Positions 18,535 through 59,867 are shown, numbered from the stretch's first letter. The stretch: 64,000 bases of DNA from Fidelibacterota bacterium (GCA_018650795.1 JABIFG010000058.1:9497-73496), one strand, 5' to 3'. Notes: generated from the letters alone by a model not told the origin. Numbers and translations: made by a program.

Positions 18535-18650
18535 GGTAAGGAGACTGAGCTTGTCGAAGTCGGTTGGTTATCACCCTATGGTAATGGACATTTCGTCCTT
18601 CGACTCCGCTCAGTATGACAGCTCAATGTCCGAGGAATCTTATAGCTTCA
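18535..18650. repeat. Copy of the dispersed intergenic element (CTGAGCTTGTCGAAG ... CGACTCCGCTCAGTATGAC)
   Basis: Shares the CTGAGCTYGTCGAAGT core and a CTCAG(G/T)ATGAC end with the copies at 6156, 38886 and 57978. Confidence 0.4.
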
Positions 18651-38703: not shown

Positions 38704-38810
38704 CCTGGATTCACAGTCCTATCATATTGTATATATAACACTAACAGAAGCAGTCCTATTTTTAATGTATTTATATAGTAACATCAATCTATTGTGTCTT
38801 TATGTATATT

Positions 38811-38820
38811 TAGTATACTA
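38811..38820. promoter_or_regulatory. 10-bp perfect palindrome TAGTATACTA inside the shared block TCAATCT..TATGTATATTTAGTATAC, about 110 bp upstream of the gene start
   Basis: The same block (tcaatct...tatgtatatttagtatac) recurs at 42716-42739 upstream of the paralog that starts at 42611. Confidence 0.35.
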
Positions 38821-38885
38821 TATATTTTAATCATTCCAAGGAATACCTAAACAGTTATTTAGTGACACCAGAAAGTGAGAATTGT

Positions 38886-38978
38886 GTCATTCTGATGGAG
38901 CGCAGTGATAGAAGAATCTTGGTCCTTTTGATGGAATCCTTCTTATGGATCAAGATCCTACGCGGTGCTCAGGATGAC
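38886..38978. repeat. Copy of the dispersed intergenic element with clear terminal inverted repeats (GTCATTCTGATGG ... GCTCAGGATGAC)
   Basis: gtcattctgatggagcgcagtgatagaagaatc...cgcggtgctcaggatgac. The internal sequence resembles 6156-6190 (gtcatcctgaggctctcgaaggatgatagtcc). Confidence 0.5.
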
Positions 38979-39003
38979 GGGGAGAAATGACATTTCGATG
39001 GAC

Positions 39004-39041
39004 AAATAAAAAGAGGCTGATAGCCTTTCAGCAATCAGCCC
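39004..39041 (-). terminator. Rho-independent terminator downstream of the 39070-40908 gene
   Basis: Minus-strand reading GGCTGATtgctgaaaggctATCAGCC followed by TCTTTTTATTT: perfect 7-bp stem plus T-run. Confidence 0.6.
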
Positions 39042-39069
39042 CTGATAAGTCAAAATCAATGACTCTATA

Positions 39070-40908
39070 CTATTTCATCAGGATCATTTTCCGGGTCAGG
39101 CTATGCATCCCCGATGATAATCTGGCAACATAGATACCAGACGGCATATTGGTCGCACTGAAGGTCAAGGTATATGAACCTGCAGTTTGATAGCCCTGTA
39201 CAAGTTTGCTGATCTCATTACCATTGACATCGTAAATCGTAAGTTCAACCACTCCACTCTCAGCTAAATCATAGCTCAATTGAGTCGAGGGATTGAATGG
39301 ATTGGGATAGTTTGTATGTAGAGCAAATGTCTGTGGACTCAGTCGACCATCGATTGAGACAGGACTAACCAGAATATAATCAGCCTTTGTCACAGTCACC
39401 GAAGCACCTGCCAAATCTCGTACAGTCAAACTCACTGAATAAGTTCCTGCCTCACTGAAAGTATAGCTCGGATTCTGAACATCTGAATCCTCAGTACCAT
39501 CATTATTAAAATCCCAACTCCAACCGATAATGCTAGATGCACCAGCTGTGGAAAGATCAGTAAATGATACTTCCAGAGGAGCTAGACCTTCAGTTACTGA
39601 AGCACTAAAATCTGCTGTAGGTGCATTATATGGATTGATTGTGATGATGACGTCATCGGTATCCGTAGCGCTACTGTCATCTGTAACCGTTAGTGTGACA
39701 GTATAGGTTCCAACCTCAAATGCGCTGGAGGCAGAAACACCTGAAGCACTGCCACCCTCCCAGGCCCAGTCATAACTGACAATCGAGCCATCACTATCCG
39801 ATGAGCCTGATCCATCCAATGTCACAAAGACGGATTGATTTGGTGCGGCAACATCAAAAGTTTGATCAGCTCCGGCGTTAGCGACTGGAGCATTGTTGCC
39901 ACCGCCGCCTCCGGAGGGATCACCCAGTTGATAAATTCTCCCACCTGGATTGAGATCTCCCAGAGCAATAACTGTGGTCGCATCATACATGTGAATCTCT
40001 CGTACCGTACAAGAGGTTGTACTGGGTATATCTGCTTCTGTCCAGGTAGCACCACCATCTGTGGTTTGATAAATTACTCCAGGACTTCCTGATCCCAGAT
40101 TACCACCTGCCATGGCATTATTTGCATCTAGATAATCTAAGGATTCAAATCTTGCCGCAGAGTTTAAAGTCATAGTTGTAAAATTTGCTCCCCCATCAGT
40201 TGTCTTGAGGGCAGAGCCATTAGTCCCAACAATCATCCAGTTATCCACATCAATAGCATCAATACCCAGAAAGACTGGCGTACCCAGACCCTGTGGCAGA
40301 ATAGTCCATGTGGCACCAGCATCCGTAGTTTTTGCGATAGCTCCCTTTTTCCCAACACTGACCCAGGTATTGTCATCAAGGAATTCCATATCATAACAGC
40401 CTGCTTTGCTGTGAATCGTTTGGAGTACATTTACAAGTGCACGACTCGAAGTCCAGTTCACACCTGCATCTTCGCTGATAAATACCTTACCACTATCGCC
40501 AACAGTGATTACTGTAGTAGCGCTCAACCATTTTGAGACCCAGAATGAATTTACTGCCTCAAAAGCTGGTGTTTCCCAGGTGGCACCACCATCACGAGTT
40601 ATCATGACGACATGGTCTTTGCCAGTGACGATTCCCAGGTTTACATCCCAGAAGTCTACTGAAAGCATCCCGGTCGGTGTCGTTGCTGCCGGGCAATCCA
40701 ATTCAGTCCAGGACGTTCCCCAGTCAGTGGTTTTTAAAACACCACCATAGGGTATATCTGTCTGATTGCCGATGGCGATATAGGCGGTCCCGTCATCCAG
40801 GATACTTATCTCCTGCAGTCGACCATCTGGTACAATTTCAGTCTCGGTCCATTGGGCAAACACAATTGATATTAGCAATAGTGCTGATACCCCTATTCGT
40901 TTAAGCAT
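39070..40908 (-). CDS. BNR/Ycf48-like beta-propeller protein with two PKD domains and a type-A T9SS CTD
   Basis: Propeller repeats (TTDWGTSW, TRDGGATW, EDAGVNW, TTDAGATW, TTDGGANF, TTDGGATW). Gly-rich linker. PKD regions ...VTLDGSGSSDSDGSIVSYDWAW... and SWDFNNDGTEDSDVQNPSYTFSEAGTYSVSLTVRD. CTD LHTNYPNPFNPSTQLSYDL...GIYVARL...RKMILMK. Confidence 0.7.
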   Translation of the reverse strand: MLKRIGVSALLLISIVFAQWTETEIVPDGRLQEISILDDGTAYIAIGNQTDIPYGGVLKTTDWGTSWTELDCPAATTPTGMLSVDFWDVNLGIVTGKDHVVMITRDGGATWETPAFEAVNSFWVSKWLSATTVITVGDSGKVFISEDAGVNWTSSRALVNVLQTIHSKAGCYDMEFLDDNTWVSVGKKGAIAKTTDAGATWTILPQGLGTPVFLGIDAIDVDNWMIVGTNGSALKTTDGGANFTTMTLNSAARFESLDYLDANNAMAGGNLGSGSPGVIYQTTDGGATWTEADIPSTTSCTVREIHMYDATTVIALGDLNPGGRIYQLGDPSGGGGGNNAPVANAGADQTFDVAAPNQSVFVTLDGSGSSDSDGSIVSYDWAWEGGSASGVSASSAFEVGTYTVTLTVTDDSSATDTDDVIITINPYNAPTADFSASVTEGLAPLEVSFTDLSTAGASSIIGWSWDFNNDGTEDSDVQNPSYTFSEAGTYSVSLTVRDLAGASVTVTKADYILVSPVSIDGRLSPQTFALHTNYPNPFNPSTQLSYDLAESGVVELTIYDVNGNEISKLVQGYQTAGSYTLTFSATNMPSGIYVARLSSGMHSLTRKMILMK

Positions 40909-40960
40909 ACTTCCTCCCCTGTCGCGTTTTAATCTGTTTCAAATAATGCCACGCTTCTTA

Positions 40961-41009
40961 CTTATAAATAAAGTGAGGAGATAAAGCCTGGAAGACCCTA
41001 TCCCCTCAC
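40961..41009 (-). terminator. Probable Rho-independent terminator downstream of the 41037-42611 gene
   Basis: Minus-strand reading GTGAGGGGAtagggtcttccaggctttaTCTCCTCAC followed by TTTATTTATAAG. The stem is imperfect. Confidence 0.35.
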
Positions 41010-41036
41010 CATCAAACTTTAGAACGATTGATCATA

Positions 41037-42611
41037 TTATTTCATCAGGATCATTTTCCTGGTCGTGCTATTCATACCTGAAGTTAATCTGGCAACATAG
41101 ACACCTGATGGCAGGTTGTTCGCACTGAAGGTCAGTGAATGTGATCCAGCGGATTGGTAGCCTTTTACCAGATTACTGATTTCATTCCCGTTCACATCAT
41201 AAACCGTCAATTCAACCATTCCACTCTCAGCGAGATCATAGCTGATCTGAGTCGACGGATTGAAGGGATTGGGAAAATTAGCATGGAGATCAAATGTCTT
41301 TGGACTCATACGGCCATCAACAGATACGACTGCATTGACTATAATAATCACTTCATCAGTAGCTGTTTCACCACCATCATCAGTTACTGTAAGTGTGATT
41401 GAATAAGTACCAGCTGCAAATTCTACATCAGCTGTCTCACCGGATGCTGTTCCACCGTCCCAGGACCATTCCCAGGCAGCTACGGTTCCATCGGAATCTG
41501 AAGATCCAGATCCATCAAGTGTAACGGTTACTCCCAGACCAGGTCCAGTTTCATCCATAGTTTGATCAGCACCTGCATCGGCTGTAGGGGCAACATTGCC
41601 AGTTCCAGATCCTGGATCACCAAGGATGTAGACATAACCATCAGTAGTCCCAACATCACCAACAACGATAACGTCTGTGGCACTGAACATATGTACATCA
41701 CGGACGCTATAGTTGTACAAATCTGCACCTGCAAATGTTTCAGCAACCCAGGTTGATCCACCATCAGCGGAAGACATCATGACACCATTACCATCGATAT
41801 ACTTACCGCCGACAATAAGATTATCAGCGCCAAAATTATCGATACAGTACCAATCAATTGTGGCTTCAGGATTAGCACCTAAATCGGCAATATTTGGGCC
41901 ACCATCACTGGTAAACAATACTTTACCCTGTTTACTCACAGCATACCAGGAATTAGCATCAACGGCTGTTATATCCTGGAAAAAGACCGTCCCAGCTGTA
42001 TGGGTAACTGCTGTCCAGGAAACACCCCCATCTGTGGATTTCAAGATCGCACCCTTTTTGCCACAGGCCAGCCAATTATTTTCATCAACGATTTCCAGAG
42101 CAGTAATATTCGCACTGCCATGAACACCAAGAAGCGCTGTATTCAAGGCAAAATCCTCGGTCCAACTCGCTCCGTTATCTTCTGTATAATAAAGAATACC
42201 TTTAAAATCCACTGCCACAAATCTGGTATCTGTGATCCACCGGACTTTATTGGTCTTATTGGGACCACCTGGACTTACACCGGAGGTCCAGGTTTCTCCA
42301 CCATCCAAAGTGACCACCATGTAACCGATGGGTCCAGTAGCAAATCCGACACCAGTGTTGTTAAAAGCAACCGTCAGAAGGGAGCTAGCACCTTCACCAG
42401 CATAATACATCAGTGTATCCCAGGTCGTTCCATAATCAGTAGTTTTCAAAACCCCGGAATAGCCAGTTCCACCTAAAGCGACATATGCCAGACCATCATC
42501 CAGTACCTGAATTTGATTTAGTTTTCCCATCGTTTCAACGACCACTTCTGTCCACTGTCCAAAACCAAGCGACATGCAGATAATTGTCAATACGAGTAAC
42601 TTTTTAAGCAT
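41037..42611 (-). CDS. BNR/Ycf48-like beta-propeller protein with a PKD/Ig-like domain and a type-A T9SS CTD
   Basis: Paralog of the 39070-40908 product. The CTD and the last ~250 nt are about 80% identical at nucleotide level to 39070-39320. PKD-like ...VTVTLDGSGSSDSDGTVAAWEWSWDGG...TYSITLTVTDDGGE. Confidence 0.7.
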   Translation of the reverse strand: MLKKLLVLTIICMSLGFGQWTEVVVETMGKLNQIQVLDDGLAYVALGGTGYSGVLKTTDYGTTWDTLMYYAGEGASSLLTVAFNNTGVGFATGPIGYMVVTLDGGETWTSGVSPGGPNKTNKVRWITDTRFVAVDFKGILYYTEDNGASWTEDFALNTALLGVHGSANITALEIVDENNWLACGKKGAILKSTDGGVSWTAVTHTAGTVFFQDITAVDANSWYAVSKQGKVLFTSDGGPNIADLGANPEATIDWYCIDNFGADNLIVGGKYIDGNGVMMSSADGGSTWVAETFAGADLYNYSVRDVHMFSATDVIVVGDVGTTDGYVYILGDPGSGTGNVAPTADAGADQTMDETGPGLGVTVTLDGSGSSDSDGTVAAWEWSWDGGTASGETADVEFAAGTYSITLTVTDDGGETATDEVIIIVNAVVSVDGRMSPKTFDLHANFPNPFNPSTQISYDLAESGMVELTVYDVNGNEISNLVKGYQSAGSHSLTFSANNLPSGVYVARLTSGMNSTTRKMILMK

Positions 42612-42849: not shown

Positions 42850-44763
42850 CTACCTAACCAACAACATTTTTATGGTATCAGACCGATTTCCCAAAATCAT
42901 CCTACAAAAATATATGCCTGTATGTACAGATAATCCTGCGTCGTTTAAACCATCCCAACTTGCTACATGTTGACCAGCAGGCATATTCTCGTTCTGTAGA
43001 ATTGCAACTTGCTTTCCCCTGGTATCGAAGACCACAAGGGAAACCGGACCAGCCTGTGAAATACCATATTGAATGCTGGTACTGGGATTAAAAGGATTAG
43101 GAAAATTTTGATGCAACATGATATCCTCTGGATTAACCGGATCATATTCATCCACGCTCAATAATATCTCGGCCTGGATTTCGGAGCCCCCCGGTCCTGC
43201 CAGGATCAAATTATCAATGCTGAATTCCACTGGTCCCGTAAATGCAACGTCAATAACCTGCATGGGAAGTTGTATCAGGAGTCCAGATTCAACATTGATC
43301 TGACCACCCCCAATATTTACACCCAGAAGACGCGTGTTTCCCGCTCCTGTGCTAGTAAATGTGGATGCTGATTCATTTCCCGGTGCTAATTCTGGTGTTC
43401 CAATTTCAAAAACGGATGGATCAAAATTAATATCTGCCTGAAACCCGGAAATCATCCCATTATATGAAATGTGAACAGGGACATTTTGCCATTCCAGAGT
43501 ATTATGAACTCGAGTCATTGATTGCGATGAAAGCGTCGTACCAGAAACAATCGACCTGGCAAGTGCAGAATCGTCAAGGATGGCTTCAATCAGCATAACC
43601 ACATCCAGGATATCGTTTGAATTATCACCATTCATATCCATAACCCGTAATTCGGTTTCCAGACCAGGATCACCGGTGGAAGTGATGATCTCAACCATGC
43701 GAGTTAAATCTGTTACATCGAGTTGTCCATCTCCAGTGATATCACCAAAGAACAGGGCTTCACCATAAAGGTATATACGTGAATCGGCACTTTGGGAATC
43801 ATGGTTGTAGTCCCCCACAGCTAGCGCATGGTCGTATCGATACATATGAATATCATTAATCATGATGGTGTTTTCATTGCCAGCGGTAAAGGGTTCATCG
43901 ATCCAATTCATTCCACCATCAGAACTGTAATGAATAACACCTGAAGAGGATCCATCCTGACCGCCGATCATCACATGATTCTCGTCGAAACAACTCACTG
44001 CATTATAATCAAAAGTATTTGAAGGATCGGGATAGAGCCTGGTAAAACTGTTACCCCCATCTGTGGTCTTCAGCACCCTCCCATTATTTCCAACAATAAA
44101 CCAATTATCAATATTTAATACTGAAATATCCTGGAAGACTGGCTTGCCAGCTGAATGTGAACATTCGCTCCACGTCAATCCATGATCCATCGTTTTGAGC
44201 ACCGCACCTTTCTTACCTACTACCACCCAATTGTCGTGATCGATGATCTCAAGGGCATAGGCTTTGGCTCTGCTGTTAACAAGATTTAACGCGGCTTCAA
44301 GACTAGTAGTTACCACCCAGCCCGCGCCAATATATTCAGTAGACCATATGATTCCATTTTCCGTTAACATTATTAACTCAGAAGAACCTATCCACCTGAC
44401 TGAGGAAATATCGTCTGAACTGCCAAACTGATCTAGTTGCCAGTTGGCTCCACCATCTTGAGTCCAGATATATTTCCCGTTTGAACCACCTACAACACCA
44501 TAATTCTCATTTTTAAACGCAATGGTTGATGCATCGTCAAGCCAGTCAACTGGACCAGAGGTTATAGTTATCCAATTTTCACCGTAATCCGTTGATTTGA
44601 TTAGCTCTGAACCATCTGAGCTGTGAACCACCGCAAATGCCAAGCCATCATTGAGGGTGCAGATTTCTATAATTTCACCCTCGTTTGGCACTTCAACTTC
44701 AACCCACTGTGGAAATCCAATTGTGAGACAAATAGTGATCAGTAAAAGCAGATGCTTAGACAT
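42850..44763 (-). CDS. BNR/Ycf48-like beta-propeller protein with a dockerin-like module, a cohesin-like module and a type-A T9SS CTD (scaffoldin-like)
   Basis: Dockerin-like GDITGDGQLDVTDLTRMVEIITS...MDMNGDNSNDILDVVMLIEAIL. The following ~140 aa (ISGFQADINFDPSVFEIGTPELAPG...LLGVNIGGGQINVESGLLIQLPMQVIDVAFTGPVEFSIDN) resemble a cohesin (core motif like CDFVFRYDPNVLEI). CTD LHQNFPNPFNPSTSIQYGI...GIYFCRM...KMLLVR. Confidence 0.6.
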   Translation of the reverse strand: MSKHLLLLITICLTIGFPQWVEVEVPNEGEIIEICTLNDGLAFAVVHSSDGSELIKSTDYGENWITITSGPVDWLDDASTIAFKNENYGVVGGSNGKYIWTQDGGANWQLDQFGSSDDISSVRWIGSSELIMLTENGIIWSTEYIGAGWVVTTSLEAALNLVNSRAKAYALEIIDHDNWVVVGKKGAVLKTMDHGLTWSECSHSAGKPVFQDISVLNIDNWFIVGNNGRVLKTTDGGNSFTRLYPDPSNTFDYNAVSCFDENHVMIGGQDGSSSGVIHYSSDGGMNWIDEPFTAGNENTIMINDIHMYRYDHALAVGDYNHDSQSADSRIYLYGEALFFGDITGDGQLDVTDLTRMVEIITSTGDPGLETELRVMDMNGDNSNDILDVVMLIEAILDDSALARSIVSGTTLSSQSMTRVHNTLEWQNVPVHISYNGMISGFQADINFDPSVFEIGTPELAPGNESASTFTSTGAGNTRLLGVNIGGGQINVESGLLIQLPMQVIDVAFTGPVEFSIDNLILAGPGGSEIQAEILLSVDEYDPVNPEDIMLHQNFPNPFNPSTSIQYGISQAGPVSLVVFDTRGKQVAILQNENMPAGQHVASWDGLNDAGLSVHTGIYFCRMILGNRSDTIKMLLVR

Positions 44764-44801: not shown

Positions 44802-46346
44802 TTAAAAACCATATTTCAGACCTATCAGTACAGTACTACTATGCTGCGATACAAAATTAAGATAGGCATAAGCAGGTTCTAAATACTTTATATGCTGGTA
44901 TTCATAAGCTATGTCTAACTGAACCTTTATGATGGAGATGGATACCCCCGTTGTAAGGCTGGTGGATCGAGGACCTTCAGATTTATCTGCAACTCCCCAG
45001 GGTACATATGCCAGGGGTGTTGAACGATAACCACCCATCAGGGTCAAAAAATCTGCTAGATCATAAGATAGACCTAATTGATAATTCATTACATCCGCCC
45101 ATTGATATTGAGTCGAGTCAGAGACAATATCCCCATAGCCAAAATCTGCATATTGAAATGTCGCAGACTCGTATGGATTGAAGCCCATGTCAAAGGCGAT
45201 ACTCAAATCTTCTGTTGCCTGAATATTTACCCCAACTGTATAAGAAGCAGGTATATCAGCATAATCCTGGCCACTAAGTGGGATTGATGAGACTGAATCA
45301 GGGGCAGAGACATGCCGGGTATAGATCCAGTCCCTTTTAAGTCGATAGGGCAACTTGACCTGAAAACCGAAGTCGATAGTTTCATAATCCAGGATCAAAC
45401 CCAGATCCATATTCAGACCACTAAAACTTGACGTCCCACTTGTCCGGGTCACTAGTGAATCATGTGAAAAAACAAAACTTTTTGACCATAGATCCAGATC
45501 CGCTATTTTATCGAGAACTAACTCATCCTCAGTATCACCAGACAGACTATTCACACCCAATCCAAGTTGAATGACTTCGCCAGGACTATAACCGAGGGCA
45601 AATCGTAGAGAATTGACTACCCCTTGACGACTCCTGGTGAATTGTGACCATACCACATGGGCTGTATCATCACTGTTATCAAAAGTATAGTGCATATACG
45701 GTCGGTGTGCCAGGAAGGGATCAGTATGACTGTCATTTCGATCGTAGTCATCCACATTGTACTGACGTGAAAAGGATCCGCCCAGGACAATATCCTGTTC
45801 AAATAGCGTGATCGGTAAAACCGCGGAGATGGCGTTTAGGGGCAATCTTTTGGAGCGCTCCTCGATCCAGCTCGCAGCACTACGCTCGTAATGATAAACA
45901 CCCTGCTCAGGGATGCCAATGTCTTCAATATCCATCAGTAACCAGAGTGAATCGTCTGTAACACCATATTGTCCAGGATCAATTTCAAAACGATAGTCCA
46001 AAATCATACTTAGCATGGGTGTGGATTCTTGATCTCCCCACATTTTATTTTCCCATAGGGTGGTCTCGGTCGCTTTAGCAGAGAATGAAATTTGAAATTC
46101 CTCAATGCCATTCAAACCGGCTGGATTAAAATAAATCGATTCAATTTCACCTGATTTTGCTGCATAAGCATTTCCAGTCGCAAGCCCTCTAACGCTCAGG
46201 GGACTGATCTGCCCCAGACCCTGAAATCCGAGATCCGCACCATTCCCCTGTGCATAAACGCTGGTGACACACATCATCCAAAGCAAGCCTGCGCTGAATA
46301 AAACTGGAAGTCCACTTCTTTTCATTTTGTATCCTAAAGAATCCAT
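44802..46346 (-). CDS. long PorV/PorQ-like (FadL-like) T9SS-associated outer-membrane beta-barrel, ~507-514 aa (paralog of 18640-20157)
   Basis: SVRGLATGNAYAAKSGEIESIYFNPAGLNGIEEFQISF; C-terminal ...STVLIGLKYGF (terminal Phe). Probable start MKRSGLPVLFSAGLLWMMC... at 46325. Confidence 0.5.
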   Translation of the reverse strand: MDSLGYKMKRSGLPVLFSAGLLWMMCVTSVYAQGNGADLGFQGLGQISPLSVRGLATGNAYAAKSGEIESIYFNPAGLNGIEEFQISFSAKATETTLWENKMWGDQESTPMLSMILDYRFEIDPGQYGVTDDSLWLLMDIEDIGIPEQGVYHYERSAASWIEERSKRLPLNAISAVLPITLFEQDIVLGGSFSRQYNVDDYDRNDSHTDPFLAHRPYMHYTFDNSDDTAHVVWSQFTRSRQGVVNSLRFALGYSPGEVIQLGLGVNSLSGDTEDELVLDKIADLDLWSKSFVFSHDSLVTRTSGTSSFSGLNMDLGLILDYETIDFGFQVKLPYRLKRDWIYTRHVSAPDSVSSIPLSGQDYADIPASYTVGVNIQATEDLSIAFDMGFNPYESATFQYADFGYGDIVSDSTQYQWADVMNYQLGLSYDLADFLTLMGGYRSTPLAYVPWGVADKSEGPRSTSLTTGVSISIIKVQLDIAYEYQHIKYLEPAYAYLNFVSQHSSTVLIGLKYGF

Positions 46347-46347
46347 T

Positions 46348-47433
46348 TTAAAGAGTCATTCCGAGTGAAAATCTATTGATGGCTCCCAGATAGGAATCAT
46401 AATTGTTGAATGAATAATCCACTTGCACACCTTTAAAATGCAGACCAAAACCAAGGCTCCAGTTCTCTGTATCATAATTCAGTTTGTAGCCAGATCTCAC
46501 AAAAAGCAGCTCATCGTAAGCATATTCCAATCCAAAATTAAACTGCTGATCGTAATCACGGGGAGCCAACATATCCACCGCAAAGAGCAGACTGGATTTC
46601 GAGTTCGGTGAAGTGAGAATCGCATCTTTTGGACCAAAAACATAGCCAGAAATACCCATGACTAGAATCTGTGGTAAGGGATACTGTTTACCTGTAACTG
46701 TTTTGATTTCATCCGTATAAGTACTGTCATGGAAGATTCGCAGGGTGTCTTCATATTCAATAAAACTTACATCCTTACCAAAATGTCTCAGGACCATAGA
46801 TATTTTTACAGATTCATAACCCGTTTTGTATTGCAGACCTGTATCAAAGGCGATGAGGGAAGCTGACATCTCACTACCATTATAGGAATAATCCGCATTT
46901 TCCTTGATCTGCTTCGCTGTCAAACCGAATGCAAATTTGTTCGTAAGGGATGCGGCATAGGACAAGCCGATAATCTGATGTCCAGGGTTAAAAGTCTCGC
47001 CGGTAAGACCTGGATTAAAATCTCCGTTTTGATATCCCATTGCATCTACAGAAGTGACATTCATTTCGCCATAATCGGTGAATTGAGCCATCATACCAAC
47101 AGTTCCAAAATTTGGAAAGTTGTAGGCGGCTGAAAAGGCAGAGGTTTTTACATCAAAGAAATAGTTGAAATGAGAAGCCGAAAGATCAAGCTTATCAATA
47201 TCCGTCAGACCTGCAGGATTGATAAACATTGCAGATGCACCATCAACAAAGGATGATATGGCATCACCCATAGCCGCCGATCTGGCGGTGGGATTGACCT
47301 TAAGGAATTGAAATGCAGTCGTCCCAACCTTTTCCTGAGCCATCACGGAGGAAAGGAAAATTGCAGCACAGATGATGACCTGTCTTGCCCTGCCTGATCT
47401 TCTTTTCATAATTTTCTCTTCACTCCATATCAT
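46348..47433 (-). CDS. PorV-like T9SS-associated outer-membrane beta-barrel (paralog of 20171-21163)
   Basis: TTAFQFLKVNPTARSAAMGDAISSFVDGASAMFINPAGLTD; ends ...NRFSLGMTL. One-bp gap to the next gene and a 4-bp overlap with the previous one, so they are co-transcribed. Confidence 0.55.
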   Translation of the reverse strand: MIWSEEKIMKRRSGRARQVIICAAIFLSSVMAQEKVGTTAFQFLKVNPTARSAAMGDAISSFVDGASAMFINPAGLTDIDKLDLSASHFNYFFDVKTSAFSAAYNFPNFGTVGMMAQFTDYGEMNVTSVDAMGYQNGDFNPGLTGETFNPGHQIIGLSYAASLTNKFAFGLTAKQIKENADYSYNGSEMSASLIAFDTGLQYKTGYESVKISMVLRHFGKDVSFIEYEDTLRIFHDSTYTDEIKTVTGKQYPLPQILVMGISGYVFGPKDAILTSPNSKSSLLFAVDMLAPRDYDQQFNFGLEYAYDELLFVRSGYKLNYDTENWSLGFGLHFKGVQVDYSFNNYDSYLGAINRFSLGMTL

Positions 47434-49793
47434 TTGATAATGAAAAATTTGCCACCGGTGGTTTGACCATCGGGGGTTGAGACCGAATAGAAATAGAGAC
47501 CTGCTGCAATAATTTGGTCATTTCGACTGACCTGGAAATACTGATGAGAATATGCATCAGAATCATGTTCCAGTGTTTCCACCAGTTGTCCGGCATATGA
47601 ATAGATGCGGATAGTACATACTGCAGGTAATCCATAAAATCCGATCATGTTGTCTTCACCCGTACCGGAGAAACCTGATTTTTCAAAGAAGGGATTTGGT
47701 GTCACCACGATTTCACCCAATTCTTCCACTGCCCCTTGACTCCTTCTAAATGCTGGTAGGTCGGCATTATCGGGATCAGGAAAGATGTTGGATTTTCCAG
47801 ACTCAAAGCCCTCAGTATCAAAACTTGTAGCTGCATAGAATACGGCTTCGCCCATCTTCAGGGTCGAGTCTTCATCAAAGAATTCGTAGGTATTGTCTGA
47901 GTTCACATCTCCAACGCCCTTAGATATGAGTAATTTCCATGGCCCCAGAGGATTGTAGGCCCTATATAAATTGAATCCACCAAGATCGTTCACCGTATGA
48001 GGAAAATTTTCCACCGCCCGATTCCAGCGTACTCGCACTCCCTGCAGAGCAGTATTAGCCACTTCCACAATGGGTGCAGGCCATGGAATATCTTGAACTG
48101 AATAGTTCCCATCTCTCGCATTATTCTCAGGCCAATAGCGGAACTCACCGGCACCCCAGCTTTCAACAGGAGCCAGTGAATCGCCAGTGTACATCTCGTA
48201 AGCTTTGCGGGAAACATCCTGCACTGTGATTACATCTGAGTTCACATAGTCAGGATATCCATAGTCTGAGATGTAATGGCTGGTCATGACCACATCATTC
48301 CCCTCATCATTTTTAAGAATGACATCAAAGGAGTCGATGTTGACGGGCTTCATAAATAATACATTCGCATCGTGTGATCCCCCACCCATAATCTCGCGGG
48401 AATCAGTGCCATATCCCACTACTTGAGCCATACTAAATTCGATGGTGTCGCCCCGATGAATTGTATAGGGACCAAATGCAAACGCCTGAAGCGGCATAGC
48501 ATTGGCTTTTTTAGACGAGAAAGATCCCCTGCCGACCCAGGTCTCACCGACTCGTGGATCTGTCAAATAGCTAGTTCCGAAAGGGTTCCCTCGCCTCTCG
48601 GTTTCACTAGAGGCACCTTCGTAAAGCTTATTCAGACCAAACCAACCTTTGTTCTTGTAAATTTCCCAGGGTTGTCTGATTCGAAATACATTGGTATCTG
48701 GTTCATCAGGAAACTGAAACAGCTCATGATCATTCGCTTTCCAGGCATAGGAGGTTTCACCATCATAAACTGTCGTATCAGTGGCGATGTTGATTGCTGA
48801 GAGATGTTTTGTATCATAATAGAGCATACTCATGCCTGCAGCCTGAGGAGCCAATAGCCCGCCACCATTTTTACCGGTTCTGGCCCATTCTTCAAAAAGA
48901 TCCAGATTTGGTTCTGGTTTGGCCTTACGGTTTAAGGAACCATTTGTTTGTGTATCAAAATTAAAAAGGGTCCATAATTTGTGATCAAAACTCTGATGGT
49001 TTCCATCGCTTATGAGTCCAGGCTTCCAGTTCCAGATGCCACCATATTCAGGTTGACGCTGATAGGCAAACATGTTGGGACCCCAAGCCTGACCGAAAAA
49101 AACAACAAAATCTTCCCAGACTTGAACCGTGTCTAGTGTAGTAATACCACCGGAGCTACGCTCTATAGTAACCTCTTCAATGGTAGTAGGATCACTATCA
49201 GTATTTCCATCGAAAACCAGTTCATATTCATGAATGATCATGTCATCATAATCAGGATAACTCCAGGCTCGCGATACGCGGGTTATTGTGACACCCATAC
49301 TGGTTGCCCATTTGGCATAGATAATTTCTTCGGCTTCTTCAGGATCATACTCGGGGTTAAGACTTCCATCTGAAAGAATGGGATAATTCTCAGTTCGATA
49401 AAATTCGACAGGAAAATTCCAGATACCAATGGTTTCCTCGGGTCCACCACCTCCGACGAGTCCACAAAATGAGAAATGACGATCGGTCTGAAACGGTTTA
49501 TCATGAACATTTCCTGATATATGAATCCCACCGCCCATAGTGTTGTGCTGTCCATCATAAATGATGGTACCCTCAACCGTGCTGGAGTACTTGGGCCATT
49601 CCATCTGAGGGTGATCAACGATATCCATACCGTCATTGTGAAAGGGTGTGCTGATGATTCCATTATTATAGAGAGATTCACGCATCATTCCTCTGCGCAT
49701 TACTTTGTATTCTCGGCGTTGACCCCAGACAGACGTCAAAGTGAGCAAAAGCATGATGATCAGCGCAATCCAGGTCTTTTCATTTTTAAACAT
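47430..49793 (-). CDS. large secreted protein of unknown function with a type-A T9SS CTD (paralog of 21166-23445)
   Basis: Signal MFKNEKTWIALIIMLLLTLTSVWGQ. Shared blocks EWPKYSSTVEGTIIYDGQHNTMGGGIHISGNVHDKP, HFSFCGLVGGGGPEE and GGLLAPQAAG. CTD ...IVVTPNPF...GLYFYSVST...KFFIIK. Confidence 0.6.
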   Translation of the reverse strand: MFKNEKTWIALIIMLLLTLTSVWGQRREYKVMRRGMMRESLYNNGIISTPFHNDGMDIVDHPQMEWPKYSSTVEGTIIYDGQHNTMGGGIHISGNVHDKPFQTDRHFSFCGLVGGGGPEETIGIWNFPVEFYRTENYPILSDGSLNPEYDPEEAEEIIYAKWATSMGVTITRVSRAWSYPDYDDMIIHEYELVFDGNTDSDPTTIEEVTIERSSGGITTLDTVQVWEDFVVFFGQAWGPNMFAYQRQPEYGGIWNWKPGLISDGNHQSFDHKLWTLFNFDTQTNGSLNRKAKPEPNLDLFEEWARTGKNGGGLLAPQAAGMSMLYYDTKHLSAINIATDTTVYDGETSYAWKANDHELFQFPDEPDTNVFRIRQPWEIYKNKGWFGLNKLYEGASSETERRGNPFGTSYLTDPRVGETWVGRGSFSSKKANAMPLQAFAFGPYTIHRGDTIEFSMAQVVGYGTDSREIMGGGSHDANVLFMKPVNIDSFDVILKNDEGNDVVMTSHYISDYGYPDYVNSDVITVQDVSRKAYEMYTGDSLAPVESWGAGEFRYWPENNARDGNYSVQDIPWPAPIVEVANTALQGVRVRWNRAVENFPHTVNDLGGFNLYRAYNPLGPWKLLISKGVGDVNSDNTYEFFDEDSTLKMGEAVFYAATSFDTEGFESGKSNIFPDPDNADLPAFRRSQGAVEELGEIVVTPNPFFEKSGFSGTGEDNMIGFYGLPAVCTIRIYSYAGQLVETLEHDSDAYSHQYFQVSRNDQIIAAGLYFYSVSTPDGQTTGGKFFIIK

Positions 49794-49827
49794 GATGTAT
49801 CTTACCCTTCTACAGCAACTGATCGCT

Positions 49828-52746
49828 CTAAAACTTGATATTCACACCCATCCTGTAATAGGCTGGTGTGTTTTTATAAATTATTGCTTCTTCGATGTAT
49901 GGAAAATCCACATTTAATGTGTATACTCGAGCTCCATCATGCCAGATTTGCTCAAGCAATTCGCCATTTTCATCATAAATATTTTCCCATTCACCTTCAA
50001 CTCCATAGTCATGGAGATCTGATTTACGCTCACTGTCCCCACGGAAGACGGAATAATTGAAAACCTTATCATTCAGCAGGTTCATACCCTCGAAATAGAC
50101 AGTATACTCGTATGCTCTCAGATGGAATGTCTTCTGGAGACGTGCCTGAAGCTTGTTTTCCTCTGGTGTTCGTCGATTATAACGCTGACCTGCAACTTCG
50201 GGATCGAATGTGTAGGGACGCCCTGTCATCCAGTCATTGCGAATATTCAAGTTCCAACTTCCCATAGGTCGTGATCCAAATACTTGGGGACCAAATTTTT
50301 TGGGGCTTCTAATATTGAAACTGGTGACCAAACGGTGGGTGCGCTCATAGTCCATAGGGATGTCTTCGGGATCAGGTAATTCAATATCTATGCGCCCCGA
50401 TAATCTGTCCAATTCAAGATAGGTTACGGGTGCATCAAAGGGAGTGGCTGACTTTCCAGTAGCTTTCTGATATCGATAGCGGACAATTGCTGTGAATAAT
50501 TTGCTGCGCTTTTCAATACTGGCATGAAAACCTTTAATATTGGCATAGTCCCGATTGTCATAGGTGCGATAAACGTTGGTCTCTTCATCGATATAGGTCA
50601 CAGCCTGGATCAGATCTTTCACATCCTTATAATAGAGACTCACATCCATCCTGATACCAAATGGAAAGCCCTGGACCACACCAATATCATATGAGTTGGT
50701 TTTTTCAGGACGAAGCTGTGGATTACCCAGGCTATTAACACGACCCGTTTCTTCGATACGACGTTCATAGACATACTTCAAACCAGGTCGCTGGACGAAT
50801 TGGCCATAATTCATATGTACTACTGAAGCCAGATTGATGGGAAATGCTATTCCCAGACGGGGTTGCAGTCGGGAGAATGGCTTGGTGTCTTCACGCAAAG
50901 CATTATCTATATCCAAATAATCTGTTTGCTCAAAGTAAGGTAGGTCAGGATTAAAATCCGGATTGCGTGTCGGTGAGAAACGATCGCTGAAATAACTCGT
51001 GTTAAAATCGTAAAAATCCCACCGCAAACCAAGATTGGCGATCATTCCCTCAAACTCGAGTTTGTCTTCCAGGTAGAGAGCACCTTCAATTGGTGTTACT
51101 TTATACTCATTCAACTCATAATTGGTCTGACTTGTTACATTATTTTCAGCATAATTTTTGATATCGTAGGCGAAGACCTGAAGACCGAATTTGAGAAGAT
51201 TGTAATTTGTTAGTTGATTTGAAACTTGACTCAACAGAGAATAGGTTGTGTTTTGATTGCGATTTCTGGAATTAGCGAATTCATCACTATACATACCGTT
51301 CAATCCCAGTCTGGAGAAAAAAGGCAATGCATTGGAAGGTCCATATTGGGGAATTTGTTGATTTGGGTCACGAATGGGTGCAAGCTGCCATGAGCGGTTA
51401 TAGAGAATCCGGAAGTTTAGATCCATAAAAGCAGCTTTTGAAAAAACGTGTTCCCAGCGAAAGCGTAAATTTTGGGTTGTCCGCATCTTTTTAGAGTTAC
51501 CCTCTTCCCTGAAGAAAAGATCTCTCGAATTATTCACACCAATCGTATTACTAAAATTATAATTATAATCATAACCCATCACCAGTTTGTTAGTACTGCT
51601 CATATCATGGGTAAGATTTACCATTAAATCTCGACGAGTATCAGGCACTTCTGAGGGTATTATATTTGGTTTTGAATGATTGCCCAGGGCGAAAAAGATA
51701 CGTGTATTATCAGTAATAGGACCACCACTGCTAAAGTTCACCCGCAGATCTTGCCAGAGGTCATTATAATTTCCATCCAGCAGTCGCGAAAAACTTCGAA
51801 ATTGGGCATAAGCAAACATAGCTTGCTTTAAGGTATCATCGTAGGTGTGGGCAGCATATTTGCCACCACCCGTTTCCTCGAAATAAGGATTCTCTGAGTC
51901 TGTAGTCGAGGTCAACCAAAACTCTGGACCGCCAGCAAAGAGGTTCCAAGGGGTTTTGGAGGTGTCAAAAACACTGCCACCCCAGTACAAATCATGAGGG
52001 GCTGTATAAGCAATCTGTACATTCGTACGCCACTTATTTTTACCCTGTTTTGGAATCATGTTCACAACACCAGATTGAGTGTTACCATATTCTGCGCTAA
52101 ATCCACTTGTCACGACCTGAACTTGTTCCATACTGATCACCAGCGGAGTGTAGGCTTTGCCATTTTCCATGGGATCTACAATGGTTCCACCATCAACCAG
52201 ATACAGGGTTTCATTTTCGCGGCCACCACGAAAATGATCATCAACGACATCGGCTTGTAAAGCGATCACATCGTCAATTTCGTACATGGCTGTATTGTTT
52301 TCCATTTCCGACATGGCGTAATTTTGACGTGTGGCTGTGAGATCAACCTGTATGTCATCAGCCCGATAGGCTGTAACCACAACATCTTCACCTAGAATGG
52401 CTTTTGGTTCGAGCTCAAAATTCACCCAGGTTGTGCGGTCCGCATCCACACGTACTCTGGTTCTTAGTTCAGTACCATACCCCATCATCATGACTTTTAT
52501 ATCATAATCACCCGGTTCGAGGTTCAGAATAAAATATTGACCTTTGTCATTGGCTGCAGCACCAGCTGGATGGAGCATTTCTACCTGAAATTCATCAACC
52601 CAAGTGGTAGGGACCACGATGGAAGCACCAATCAGAGGTTCTTTCGTTTCCAGATTACGAATCACCCCAGCTATTTTGCCTGTTACACCTGCAAAGCACC
52701 AGCTTGTCATCATTATGATCAGGAAGAAAGCTTTTGTGCCTCTCAT
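49828..52746 (-). CDS. TonB-dependent receptor (paralog of 23455-26379)
   Basis: GKIAGVIRNLETKEPLIGASIVVP...GQYFILNLEPGDYDIKVMMMGY; TSGFSAEYGNTQSGVVNMIPKQG; terminal YYRMGVNIKF. Confidence 0.8.
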   Translation of the reverse strand: MRGTKAFFLIIMMTSWCFAGVTGKIAGVIRNLETKEPLIGASIVVPTTWVDEFQVEMLHPAGAAANDKGQYFILNLEPGDYDIKVMMMGYGTELRTRVRVDADRTTWVNFELEPKAILGEDVVVTAYRADDIQVDLTATRQNYAMSEMENNTAMYEIDDVIALQADVVDDHFRGGRENETLYLVDGGTIVDPMENGKAYTPLVISMEQVQVVTSGFSAEYGNTQSGVVNMIPKQGKNKWRTNVQIAYTAPHDLYWGGSVFDTSKTPWNLFAGGPEFWLTSTTDSENPYFEETGGGKYAAHTYDDTLKQAMFAYAQFRSFSRLLDGNYNDLWQDLRVNFSSGGPITDNTRIFFALGNHSKPNIIPSEVPDTRRDLMVNLTHDMSSTNKLVMGYDYNYNFSNTIGVNNSRDLFFREEGNSKKMRTTQNLRFRWEHVFSKAAFMDLNFRILYNRSWQLAPIRDPNQQIPQYGPSNALPFFSRLGLNGMYSDEFANSRNRNQNTTYSLLSQVSNQLTNYNLLKFGLQVFAYDIKNYAENNVTSQTNYELNEYKVTPIEGALYLEDKLEFEGMIANLGLRWDFYDFNTSYFSDRFSPTRNPDFNPDLPYFEQTDYLDIDNALREDTKPFSRLQPRLGIAFPINLASVVHMNYGQFVQRPGLKYVYERRIEETGRVNSLGNPQLRPEKTNSYDIGVVQGFPFGIRMDVSLYYKDVKDLIQAVTYIDEETNVYRTYDNRDYANIKGFHASIEKRSKLFTAIVRYRYQKATGKSATPFDAPVTYLELDRLSGRIDIELPDPEDIPMDYERTHRLVTSFNIRSPKKFGPQVFGSRPMGSWNLNIRNDWMTGRPYTFDPEVAGQRYNRRTPEENKLQARLQKTFHLRAYEYTVYFEGMNLLNDKVFNYSVFRGDSERKSDLHDYGVEGEWENIYDENGELLEQIWHDGARVYTLNVDFPYIEEAIIYKNTPAYYRMGVNIKF

Positions 52747-52868
52747 TAAGACCTCACTTATACCGCTTATTGGTTTACCAATAAAGCCTGAATCTTCTTA
52801 TCGACGAAGACAGCTGGTTTAAATGTTCTTTTGCGTCCAATTTTTCATATCAGTGCATTACACTTTAT

Positions 52869-52887
52869 TAAGTATACTTAATATACT
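52869..52887. promoter_or_regulatory. Inverted repeat AAGTATA-N5-TATACTT about 130 bp upstream of the TonB-dependent receptor gene
   Basis: aagtatacttaatatactt in the intergenic region 52747-52941. Confidence 0.3.
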
Positions 52888-52941
52888 TTTAACATGACTA
52901 ATAACAAGCACGACTCATGCAATAAGTAGCCCAAATAATGT

Positions 52942-58064: not shown

Positions 58065-59867
58065 CTATTTCACAAGGATCATTTTTCTGACTTGACTCAC
58101 TCCCTCACTTTCTAAACGATAGAGATAGAGACCTGCCGGAAGTTTGCTGGCATCCAGTTTTACAGTATGGGATCCAGCGGTATAGTCCCCAGATGCAATC
58201 GAGTGAACCCAGCGTCCCTTGATATCAAACAACTCGAGGCTTATGTACTGATTATCCTCCAATTCAAATTGGATATTGGTACTTGGATTGAACGGATTAG
58301 GAAAATTTTGTGATAAACTAAAGCTCCTGGGTGCCCGACGAACCTGATCAATGCCAACAACCCCGCCGGGTCCGACCATAGACACATCATCGACATAGAT
58401 GGTTCCATCTCCATCCCAACTGGCATTGACATCTACTGTCCGCAATTTGAAGTCACAAAAAGCCACGCTATCCGGGGCGGTGACAAATCCGGTTGAAATA
58501 TGCTGCCAGCCCCCCTCATTAGCAGTGATGCCTGATTCGACATCAGAACCAACTCGGTCGTGCTCAGCGTTCTCCCATCTGATTAAAACGCGTCCTACTA
58601 CTGCTGAATCATTGTCAAAAAACCAGGCTGAGAATTTGTAATCATCTCCTGCAACTACCGGGATATCCTGTTGAGTGAACAGGCGGGGACTCTTAATGGT
58701 TTGTTCAATGCGAACACTCCTGGTTCCCCAATGAACTATAGATTCTTCTATGGAAGCTGTCACGGCGCTGTCTTTATCGAATGCCCAAAACTCAGGCATG
58801 GTATCGTTCCAGGTCTCGAAACCTACATTACTAAGGTGCTCACCTAAGCCAGCATAAATCAGGTCTGAAGAAAGTTTGGTACTAGGCAAACCATTTTCAT
58901 CTTGAATGTATAAGCTTACGCTGTAATGACCTGGATTTTCATAAATATGACTGGGAGACTGCTCAGTACTAGAATTTCCATCTCCAAAATCCCATTGATA
59001 TTGATTGATAGGACTATTGCCTGGCACTGAAAGATCAGTAAAATTAACCATAAGCGGAGCATCACCTGATGTGGGTGAAGCCGTAAAGTCAGCACTTGGT
59101 GCACCCGTCACTTCAGCTACCGGAGAATCATCGTCCCAGAGTGGATCGCCCACGATCGTACCATTGTTTCCGCTGGTACTGTAGTCCTGGGTTGAGGTTC
59201 CACTTCCTTCATTAAATTTCCAATATCCCTGAAGTGTAGCTGAGGAATTGTAATTCCCACCATCCGCTAAAACATCAAGAACATTTCCTTCGGCATAAAT
59301 AGCTGCAGCCTCTTCTGGATTCAAAGCTGAATTCCAGAAAGCAATTTCGTCCAGCTTACCACCATAATAACCATTGTTCTTGCGGGCGAATCTTAACTTT
59401 CCCGTATTATCAAGTGATAAGGTAGAGAAGGTATTGATAATGACAGAATCAGAGGCAGAACCATTAATATAAATATAGGCTGTGTCCAATAAGGTTCGAT
59501 CTACTGCCAGAATAATATTTACCCAGGCATTGGTTTCAACTTCAGTCATAATATCTGGTTCGGAACGCAGGGAAATTTCCTCCACACCAGCTACTTTCCC
59601 GAGAAAAGTAATGGCTCCCGTCCCGCCATTTAAGTTGAATTGCCAGAGGTTAGCGCCGTTTTGCTTTTTGGCCATGAACATCTTTCCATCTGCCCAGGAG
59701 TCTACCTTGGCCCATACAGAAATGCTAAAATCGCCTTCAATTAGATCAAGGGCAGGTGAATCCTCGAATTCTACAAAATCATTTACACCATCAAAATTCA
59801 AAGAATAATCCTCGGCATGGCTGATGCCGTATAATAGAATTAATACTATTACACTTATCTTTTTCAT
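58065..59867 (-). CDS. secreted protein with LamG/concanavalin-A-like lectin, PKD, CBM4/9-like and type-A T9SS CTD modules
   Basis: LamG-like LNFDGVNDFVEFEDSPALDL...FSISVWAKVDSW...GKLDEIAFWNSALNPEEAAAIY. PKD ...NFTDLS...YQWDFGDGNSSTEQSPSHIYENPGHYSVSLYIQDENG. CBM4/9-like LSNVGFETWND...EFWAFDKD. CTD LSQNFPNPFNPSTNIQF...GLYLYRL...RKMILVK. Confidence 0.7.
   Translation of the reverse strand: MKKISVIVLILLYGISHAEDYSLNFDGVNDFVEFEDSPALDLIEGDFSISVWAKVDSWADGKMFMAKKQNGANLWQFNLNGGTGAITFLGKVAGVEEISLRSEPDIMTEVETNAWVNIILAVDRTLLDTAYIYINGSASDSVIINTFSTLSLDNTGKLRFARKNNGYYGGKLDEIAFWNSALNPEEAAAIYAEGNVLDVLADGGNYNSSATLQGYWKFNEGSGTSTQDYSTSGNNGTIVGDPLWDDDSPVAEVTGAPSADFTASPTSGDAPLMVNFTDLSVPGNSPINQYQWDFGDGNSSTEQSPSHIYENPGHYSVSLYIQDENGLPSTKLSSDLIYAGLGEHLSNVGFETWNDTMPEFWAFDKDSAVTASIEESIVHWGTRSVRIEQTIKSPRLFTQQDIPVVAGDDYKFSAWFFDNDSAVVGRVLIRWENAEHDRVGSDVESGITANEGGWQHISTGFVTAPDSVAFCDFKLRTVDVNASWDGDGTIYVDDVSMVGPGGVVGIDQVRRAPRSFSLSQNFPNPFNPSTNIQFELEDNQYISLELFDIKGRWVHSIASGDYTAGSHTVKLDASKLPAGLYLYRLESEGVSQVRKMILVK

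Follow-up and report, generated by a model that had tools for sequence, protein, structure and literature searches.

Polysaccharide utilisation loci are recognised and counted almost wholly through pairs of SusC and SusD genes, and because loci are detected in this way, glycan uptake by lineages of the Fibrobacterota-Chlorobiota-Bacteroidota (FCB) superphylum other than Bacteroidota is largely invisible to annotation. These lineages are abundant; examples are SAR406/Marinimicrobia, which live in the dark ocean, and the sediment groups Ignavibacteriota, Calditrichota and KSB1. Here we describe a four-gene cassette that is present twice in a stretch of 64,000 nucleotides from a Fidelibacterota bacterium (GCA_018650795.1, JABIFG010000058.1:9497-73496; hereafter the window), and that encodes a TonB-dependent transporter, a secreted protein that we refer to as the cargo, a PorV/PorQ-family barrel and a larger FadL-family barrel. 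On balance we lean towards the view that the four genes specify one outer-membrane glycan-uptake complex, similar to SusC/D, with a partner delivered through the secretion system of type IX (T9SS) and held by dedicated barrels, and we infer that loci of the polysaccharide-utilisation type in FCB phyla other than Bacteroidota proper are built around this module.

The cassette resembles SusC/SusD (RagA/RagB) systems in that a gene for a large transporter with a CarboxypepD_reg-like extension lies directly next to that of a surface partner, with more surface proteins encoded just downstream, and in that several copies are found per genome, in loci with carbohydrate-active enzymes (CAZymes) or sulfatases, GntR-type regulators and major facilitator superfamily (MFS) transporters. 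It differs in that neither cassette transporter matches the SusC/RagA model at E≤0.01 (NCBIfam), and the transporter profile matched none of the solved SusC structures in PDB, giving only weak matches to PhuR and Cir. SusD is a helical tetratricopeptide repeat (TPR) lipoprotein, whereas the cassette partner has a Sec signal peptide, a predicted beta-supersandwich, an Fn3-like domain and a T9SS C-terminal domain (CTD), such that its surface exposure would proceed via the T9SS and not by lipoprotein export. No Pfam domain scores above cut-off in the cargo, its model has no helical TPR fold and its signal peptide has no lipobox Cys; no member of the SusD family was matched among the window open reading frames (ORFs) scanned. 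Two additional FadL-family barrels are also obligatory in the cassette. The BtuB-BtuG and TbpA-TbpB systems likewise combine a TonB-dependent transporter with a surface ligand-capturing protein, as we propose here, but unlike in the cassette the partners are lipoproteins, with neither a T9SS CTD nor FadL-family anchor barrels.

Parallels to the barrels and the CTD are found in three other systems. PorZ keeps its CTD, to which PorQ binds, and protection of CTDs from cleavage has been proposed as a role of cognate PorV-like barrels (PMC10202324). As in the PorQ-PorZ and PorV-PorU pairs, the cassette couples a PorV/PorQ-family barrel with a protein that has a CTD similar to those of PorZ and PorU, which are retained, although the scores of the cassette proteins fall well short of the PorQ, PorV and PorZ equivalog cut-offs, the cargo N-terminal domain (N-domain) is unrelated to the PorZ beta-propellers, and the cassette is multi-copy, locus-embedded and linked to a transporter whereas the T9SS pairs form a single housekeeping set. 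In SprB-SprF and other PorP/SprF-type systems a dedicated FadL/PorV-like barrel gene also adjoins the gene for its own CTD cargo (PMC10202324), but these involve type-B CTDs and gliding adhesins, as opposed to a type-A variant CTD and a nutrient transporter in the cassette. Finally, BamG, a barrel of the FadL family, docks on BamA, packs against this larger barrel and anchors the surface protein BamH by its extracellular loops (PMC12611786, PMC12578637). BamG is the nearest relative of the larger cassette barrel in both profile and fold, but the latter is about 100 residues longer owing to extra loops and scores 34 bits against a 250-bit cut-off. It is also multi-copy and locus-encoded, and is therefore not the essential subunit of the machinery that assembles beta-barrels (BAM).

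All parts of the cassette thus belong to known families, and what is new is that a TonB-dependent transporter is combined with a putatively T9SS-delivered partner, which has a CTD class of its own, and with two FadL-family barrels. We found no description of the four-gene cassette in the open-access full-text literature. The Melioribacter roseus genome paper describes one SusCDE operon as well as Por-domain enzymes, and does not report the module (PMC3534657); both systems can therefore co-exist within a phylum.

Two intact paralogous cassettes

The two cassettes are organised as follows.

44802-52746, minus strand: cassette 2 (four genes)
49828-52746, minus: cassette 2 gene 1, TonB-dependent transporter, 972 aa
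47430-49793, minus: cassette 2 gene 2, cargo, 787 aa
46348-47433, minus: cassette 2 gene 3, predicted PorV/PorQ-family 14-strand barrel, 361 aa
44802-46346, minus: cassette 2 gene 4, FadL-family barrel closest to BamG, 514 aa
18640-26379, minus strand: cassette 1 (four genes)
23455-26379, minus: cassette 1 gene 1, paralogous TonB-dependent transporter, 974 aa
21166-23445, minus: cassette 1 gene 2, paralogous cargo, 759 aa
20171-21163, minus: cassette 1 gene 3, paralogous PorV/PorQ-family barrel, 330 aa, GTG start
18640-20157, minus: cassette 1 gene 4, paralogous FadL/BamG-like barrel, 505 aa

A first-pass annotation of the window had placed the four ORFs of cassette 2 at exactly these positions, and had described them as gene-for-gene paralogues of a matching set, cassette 1, which lies about 26 kb away. 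Full-length BLASTP alignments agree with this (E of 0 to 6e-49), and the identities of 35-50% estimated in the same annotation are accurate for the transporters (38%, E=0), the cargo proteins (40%, E=0) and the PorV-like barrels (39%, E=5e-78), but are too high for the large barrels (26%, E=6e-49). Three sequence motifs it had listed (GQHNxxGGGIHI, HFSFxGxVGxGGPE and GGLLAPQAAG) are present in both cargo proteins, and the two junctions it described are correct, with a 4-bp overlap between the cargo and PorV-like genes and a 1-bp gap between the two barrel genes; the transporter and cargo genes of cassette 2 are separated by 34 bp.

Both cassettes have orthologues, with 73-94% protein identity, in a Neomarinimicrobiota metagenome-assembled genome (MAG) from the Black Sea at 150 m (loci L004 and L035). 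The two window copies have protein identities of 23-40%, a level at which synonymous sites are saturated and a direct comparison is unsuitable, and the ratio of nonsynonymous to synonymous substitution (dN/dS) was determined for each gene relative to these orthologues. Values range from 0.027 to 0.106 for all eight genes, and there are no frameshifts in either copy. Neither is the pseudo-cassette that had been considered as an alternative at the outset; both are intact and under purifying selection, and neither is decaying.

The gene order is conserved in at least five FCB lineages

Scanning one genome per GTDB species with a degenerate pattern, we recovered 313 stretches encoding a relative of the cargo, and searched the eight window proteins against six-frame ORFs of the best 80. 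These are the closest of the 313, and far more divergent members exist, so that the apparently unusual conservation of the cargo is biased by this choice. The order transporter, cargo, PorV-like barrel, large barrel, all on one strand, is present in 72 of the 80 loci. Seven of the others are cut by contig ends, which leaves one true exception, in Fidelibacterota bin809 (L080, CP070656.1), where the cargo is kept, the transporter is fragmentary and neither barrel is encoded downstream (hhalign E 0.07-0.33); this is probably a degenerate copy or an assembly problem. The 80 loci derive from Neomarinimicrobiota, Ignavibacteriota/Melioribacteraceae, Calditrichia (Calditrichota), KSB1, Fidelibacterota, and MAGs labelled Bacteroidetes or Cytophagia, the last of which group with other lineages in the tree, and the order is thus found in at least five lineages of the superphylum. 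Several genomes carry two or three cassettes, with three in one KSB1 bin. The suggestion in the first-pass annotation that the four proteins act as a unit, which it had drawn from the duplication, is supported, and the strongest evidence for it is this near-invariant order.

The wider family is large, as a HMMER scan of 1.84 billion cluster representatives with the cargo profile recovered 2,731 proteins at E≤1e-10. A distant relative (P0176, locus L090) is encoded between a CarboxypepD_reg transporter and a PorV-like gene, and the transporter/cargo/PorV-like architecture is therefore not confined to the close subfamily but reaches well past it. Among named homologues, the nearest are those of Candidatus Marinimicrobia/Neomarinimicrobiota, and cargo homologues with source names are all annotated either as hypothetical proteins or as T9SS C-terminal target or type A sorting domain-containing proteins. 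A protein identical to the 787-aa cargo is indexed in 204 public assembly blocks (loci L001-L003) on contigs of up to 0.2-1 Mb, and the source population is therefore widespread in sequenced samples.

Cassettes lie in loci with different glycan specificities

The whole window is a co-directional locus whose products include GH29 fucosidases, sulfatases and GH141-like (beta-helix) proteins, with a CTD at the end of many of the encoded proteins, and is predicted to be a fucoidan-type degradation locus. Related cassettes have other neighbours. One locus (L087) contains a GntR regulator, the cassette, an SDR protein, a PL17-like lyase, a cupin, an MFS transporter and a PL6 enzyme, as predicted for an alginate-type locus; others contain a KDPG aldolase, a PfkB kinase, a PL6 enzyme and a heparinase-like protein (L085), four sulfatases (L089), or an amylase together with beta-helix/DUF5123 CTD proteins (L084). 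The cassette therefore sits in loci of differing glycan specificity, at the position held by SusC/SusD in the loci of Bacteroidota.

A CTD protein is encoded immediately after the cassette in 51 of 63 related loci (L006-L089), with a length of 450-570 aa and an ordinary T9SS CTD, and 43 of these 51 belong to a single beta-helix/DUF5123-like family, which is a probable fifth member of the module. In the window this family is missing from the fifth position of both cassettes, and DUF5123 CTD proteins are encoded elsewhere, at 11015-13606 and 26573-31075.

The cargo carries a distinct class of T9SS CTD

The 787-aa cargo has a signal peptide with predicted cleavage before Gln, an N-domain (residues ~26-480), a linker, an Fn3-like domain (~571-690) and a variant T9SS CTD (~691-787). 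An AlphaFold2 model (pLDDT 70.7, pTM 0.78, from a 29-sequence alignment) is almost wholly beta, and in it the N-domain is predicted to be a galactose-mutarotase-like beta-supersandwich of the type found in carbohydrate enzymes, followed by an Fn3 domain and a CTD-like beta-sandwich; the model contains no (alpha/alpha)6 catalytic domain.

The cargo had earlier been labelled simply as a CTD protein. Of the family, 28 of 29 members match the generic T9SS CTD model TIGR04183 at E≤0.01, and the copy 1 cargo scores above its cut-off (29.3 bits compared with 23), but the CTD of the 787-aa protein itself falls below it (18.7 bits), and the Pfam CTD (PF18962) scores are under the gathering threshold for both copies. 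At least ten ordinary CTD proteins are encoded within the window, which implies that a T9SS is present in the organism, the core T9SS genes lying outside the window. With the generic model the ordinary CTD proteins of the window score 32-43 bits, and the cargo proteins 19-29 bits. A hidden Markov model (HMM) built from ten ordinary window CTDs recognises 93 non-cargo CTDs from other phyla with a median of 99.9 bits, whereas 81 cargo CTDs have a median of 20.9 and a maximum of 28.4 bits; with the reciprocal cargo-CTD HMM, the family itself scores at least 100 bits and ordinary CTDs 5-23 bits. The tail of the PorZ model matches 25 of 29 cargo homologues and none of nine ordinary CTD proteins of the window, the copy 1 cargo scoring 31.7 bits over residues 661-758, and the PorZ CTD is the sole PDB match of the cargo profile (E=0.025). 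Cargo CTDs thus constitute a distinct and sharply separate PorZ-like variant class. The cargo is not PorZ itself, a possibility we rejected, as the N-domain differs and the gene is multi-copy; the PorZ model NF052228 has no full-length match in the cargo that includes its two beta-propeller domains. Ordinary T9SS CTDs such as those encoded at 33256-35400, 39070-40908 and 58065-59867 are themselves highly conserved, with scores of about 100 bits in Ignavibacteriota, Calditrichia and KSB1.

These properties bear on whether the cargo is simply an ordinary T9SS substrate, with its CTD cleaved by PorU and the protein released or attached to lipopolysaccharide (LPS), and with the barrels acting only as dedicated secretion shuttles or chaperones, in parallel to SprF for SprB, rather than as permanent anchors. 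The transporter would still import a glycan, and the cargo would be a free or LPS-bound glycan-binding protein. The type-A-like character of the CTD, as seen in its nearly universal match to TIGR04183, is in keeping with this, and PorV is a known shuttle, with PorP/SprF-type barrels that are specific to one cargo also described (PMC10202324); the PorP/SprF model weakly matches 11 of 31 members of the PorV-like family. However, the cargo CTD forms a discrete class that models of ordinary CTDs barely recognise, it resembles the tails of PorZ and PorU, which both retain their CTDs, with a median identity of 62% it is better conserved than the rest of the cargo, and it co-varies with both barrels as described below. 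We therefore regard an ordinary substrate as rather unlikely, but as the alternative that deserves most attention.

One barrel is of the PorV/PorQ family and the other is FadL/BamG-like

The product of gene 3 can be assigned to the PorV/PorQ family, and by score is closer to PorQ than to PorV. It scores 161.8 bits with the PorV_fam model NF033709 (157.8 bits for copy 1; cut-off 90), which also matches all 31 PorV-like homologues. Scores with PorQ NF033711 are 89.9 bits for copy 2 and 93.8 bits for copy 1, and with PorV NF033710 are 53.9 and 67.2 bits, below the equivalog cut-offs of 220 and 250 respectively. Searching PDB with profile A2 identified Flavobacterium johnsoniae PorV (6h3i_F, 3.8e-18), although searches with single sequences of three barrel proteins gave nothing useful and profiles were needed. 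Further PorV-like genes lie beside the cassette in two of the related loci, one following the gene for an 1148-aa protein and encoding 337 aa (L087, 1-1851), and the other adjoining a transporter-like ORF (L061, 2-2956, minus strand). The encoding of PorV-family barrels within individual loci may be more general in these phyla.

Gene 4 had also been labelled PorV/PorQ-like, and this is not borne out. The 514-aa protein matches PorV-family models only weakly and only at its N-terminus, and both its profile and its fold are FadL/BamG-like: it has a 14-strand barrel with an N-terminal hatch that bears an NPA motif, and when its profile was searched against PDB the top match was BamG, as chain F of the B. 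thetaiotaomicron BAM complex. The BamG model NF053685 weakly matches 31 of 31 large-barrel homologues, with 33.8 bits for the 514-aa copy and 16.1 for the other, both far below the equivalog cut-off of 250; the Toluene_X score of the copy 1 large barrel (24.7 bits) is also below cut-off. We conclude that the gene 4 product is a FadL-family barrel that is closest to BamG and is not a PorV. Long extra loops are present at residues 102-164, 199-230 and 393-416. Word-index homologue searches with this barrel yielded only three to five proteins, even using a 31-sequence profile, and the AlphaFold2 model of the large barrel therefore rests on a 6-sequence alignment.

Co-variation suggests two interaction modules

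Using partial Mantel tests on the distances among 59 loci with all four genes, in each case controlling for the other components, we observe that the cargo N-domain co-varies strongly with the transporter (r=0.83-0.84, p=0.001), and the cargo CTD co-varies with both barrels, r being 0.39-0.47 for the PorV-like one and 0.38-0.54 (p≤0.018) for the large one. Correlations of the CTD with the transporter and with its own N-domain are not significant in the same loci. The pattern persists when the long-branch marine clade (see below) is removed, and suggests two interaction modules, one comprising the N-domain and the transporter, and the other the CTD and the two barrels. The CTD correlates more closely with the large barrel, to which it is not adjacent, than the two adjacent barrels do with each other.

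A different role for these proteins would be as a locus-specific T9SS attachment complex, in which a PorQ/PorZ-like pair and a further barrel fix CTD enzymes close to the transporter, without binding a ligand. Such a complex could account for the PorZ-like tail of the cargo and its PorQ-like partner barrel, and for the wealth of ordinary CTD enzymes in these loci, including the CTD protein that so commonly follows the cassette. It is nonetheless improbable, given that the cargo N-domain is predicted to be a beta-supersandwich and not the two beta-propellers of PorZ, that there is no gene for a PorU-like sortase beside the cassette in the window or in the related loci examined, and that the correlation of the N-domain with the transporter (r=0.83) points to a transporter-linked role.

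The transporter

Besides a signal peptide, the cassette 2 transporter contains an N-terminal extension that is CarboxypepD_reg-like (residues 25-124), with PF13715/PF13620 matches above cut-off, as well as a predicted plug and a large barrel with a C-terminal Phe. It contains a TonB-box-like sequence, GEDVVVTAY, of which the VVVTAY segment is invariant or nearly so in the transporter alignment (A4). The barrel domain PF00593 scores 73.8 bits for copy 2 and 69.2 bits for copy 1 (cut-off 27); the Plug match (PF07715) is weak at 16.8 bits, under the cut-off of 23.9, and the plug motifs RGGR...YL.DG and SGFSAEYGN.QSGVVN are invariant in A4. The two copies have a common Pfam architecture, and on the basis of family membership the gene 1 product can be designated a transporter.

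Its closest NCBIfam and PDB matches are haem and siderophore receptors, far under their cut-offs, and FadL and TodX homologues transport hydrophobic compounds. Both observations would fit a set of four proteins that are merely co-regulated and function independently, the FadL barrels taking up hydrophobic or amphipathic compounds and the transporter a nutrient other than a glycan. We consider this highly improbable, because the gene order is invariant across phyla, the module lies consistently inside CAZyme and sulfatase loci, the co-variation is specific to individual domains, and the special class of CTD is found in the cargo alone.

A proposed model for the assembled complex

Building on the homology, synteny, genomic context, fold classes, CTD class and co-variation described above, we propose that the transporter imports oligosaccharides, the genomic context suggesting a glycan as its substrate. 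The cargo, as indicated by its signal peptide and CTD, would be exported by the T9SS, and its supersandwich domain would serve as a ligand-capturing partner or lid at the cell surface, much as SusD does for SusC, in keeping with the gene position, fold and co-variation. The PorZ-like CTD would be kept, and not be a disposable signal, remaining bound to its cognate PorQ-like barrel, while the BamG-like barrel would act as a second membrane adaptor that tethers the partner beside the transporter. Retention and tethering are proposed by analogy with PorZ-PorQ, PorU-PorV, SprB-SprF and BamH-BamG. For the full form of this scheme, in which two dedicated FadL-family barrels encoded in the locus hold the transporter's T9SS-delivered extracellular partner permanently by way of its CTD subclass, as a previously unrecognised mode of glycan import in Marinimicrobia, Ignavibacteriota, Calditrichota, KSB1 and their relatives, our confidence is lower, and we put it forward tentatively.

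Several considerations weigh against the model. Formation of a complex by the four proteins, ligand binding by the cargo and the nature of the transported substrate are all inferred, and CTD retention is not a property that can be read from sequence. The likeness of the cargo CTD to the PorZ tail is weak in absolute terms (~32 bits; PDB E=0.025), both AlphaFold2 models are of moderate confidence (pLDDT 65-71), and it is over the large barrel's role that the scheme is least constrained. Linkage and recombination, as opposed to physical contact, could be partly behind the co-variation, since the coding regions for the transporter and the cargo N-domain are adjacent on the DNA. Finally, the SusCDE operon annotated in M. 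roseus (PMC3534657) means that the module cannot be regarded simply as standing in for a SusD that is missing.

If the proposed complex is correct, the cassette would be a locus marker for these phyla as SusC/D is for Bacteroidota, and this four-gene marker would let their glycan loci be found and typed in metagenomes. It would also represent a T9SS-assembled counterpart of the SusC/D 'pedal-bin' complex, extending the uses of the T9SS from secretion and gliding to the assembly of transporter complexes, and would provide a third case of FadL-family anchors for surface proteins, after PorQ-PorZ and BamG-BamH.

Age of the duplication

In the family alignments the two window copies have identities of 0.23-0.41 to each other, compared with medians of 0.41-0.54 for cross-phylum pairs of the retrieved loci, and both copies are already present in the Black Sea MAG. 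The duplication is thus old. In a neighbour-joining tree the two copies and another marine Marinimicrobia sequence form one long-branch clade, which points to an old duplication inside a marine Marinimicrobia lineage followed by fast divergence, although it is possible that long-branch attraction is the source of the joint clade. Divergence is even over the domains, with identities of 0.43 for the cargo N-domain, 0.41 for the CTD, 0.36 for the transporter barrel and 0.52 for the plug, and the enzymes flanking the two cassettes differ. Retargeting, as the first-pass annotation proposed, is plausible, and the copies would probably serve different oligosaccharide products; differing flanks and even divergence do not show a change of ligand.

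Flanking regions and other features of the window

The only sizeable gap associated with cassette 2 is upstream of the transporter gene, and is the likely site of its promoter and regulation.

52747-52941, minus strand: intergenic region upstream of cassette 2, 195 bp

Promoter and terminator scans of this region gave promoter-like and hairpin matches that are weak and at background frequency, and the regions upstream of the two cassettes have no similarity and no common motif. The 193-bp gap preceding the cassette 1 transporter gene contains a GC-rich hairpin (GCCCGTGCGGGC).

The gene directly after cassette 2, which takes the place of the fifth gene, was characterised with Pfam and NCBIfam.

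42850-44763, minus strand: 637-aa protein with BNR/Sortilin, dockerin, cohesin-like and CTD segments

Its type I dockerin scores 30.7 bits, above cut-off, and its cohesin match is weak, the mixture being unusual for Marinimicrobia. Beyond it, at 37336-42611, are three more paralogues of the BNR/PKD CTD type. Directly upstream of cassette 1, the DUF5123 protein encoded at 26573-31075 (minus strand) is 1500 aa long and also contains DUF5689, F5/8 type C, Big_9 and CTD domains.

Signal-peptide cleavage directly before Gln is known from secreted and outer-membrane proteins of Bacteroidota, and cleavage at this position (consensus A-Q) is predicted for three of the four cassette proteins, the cargo, the PorV-like barrel and the large barrel, as well as for their homologues. 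A third TonB-dependent transporter, encoded at 8477-10900 (minus strand), is of the OMP_b-brl_3 type and contains both a clear Plug domain and an N-terminal CarboxypepD_reg extension; it has no cargo, PorV-like or FadL-like partners, and its start overlaps the preceding beta-helix gene at 6316-8490.

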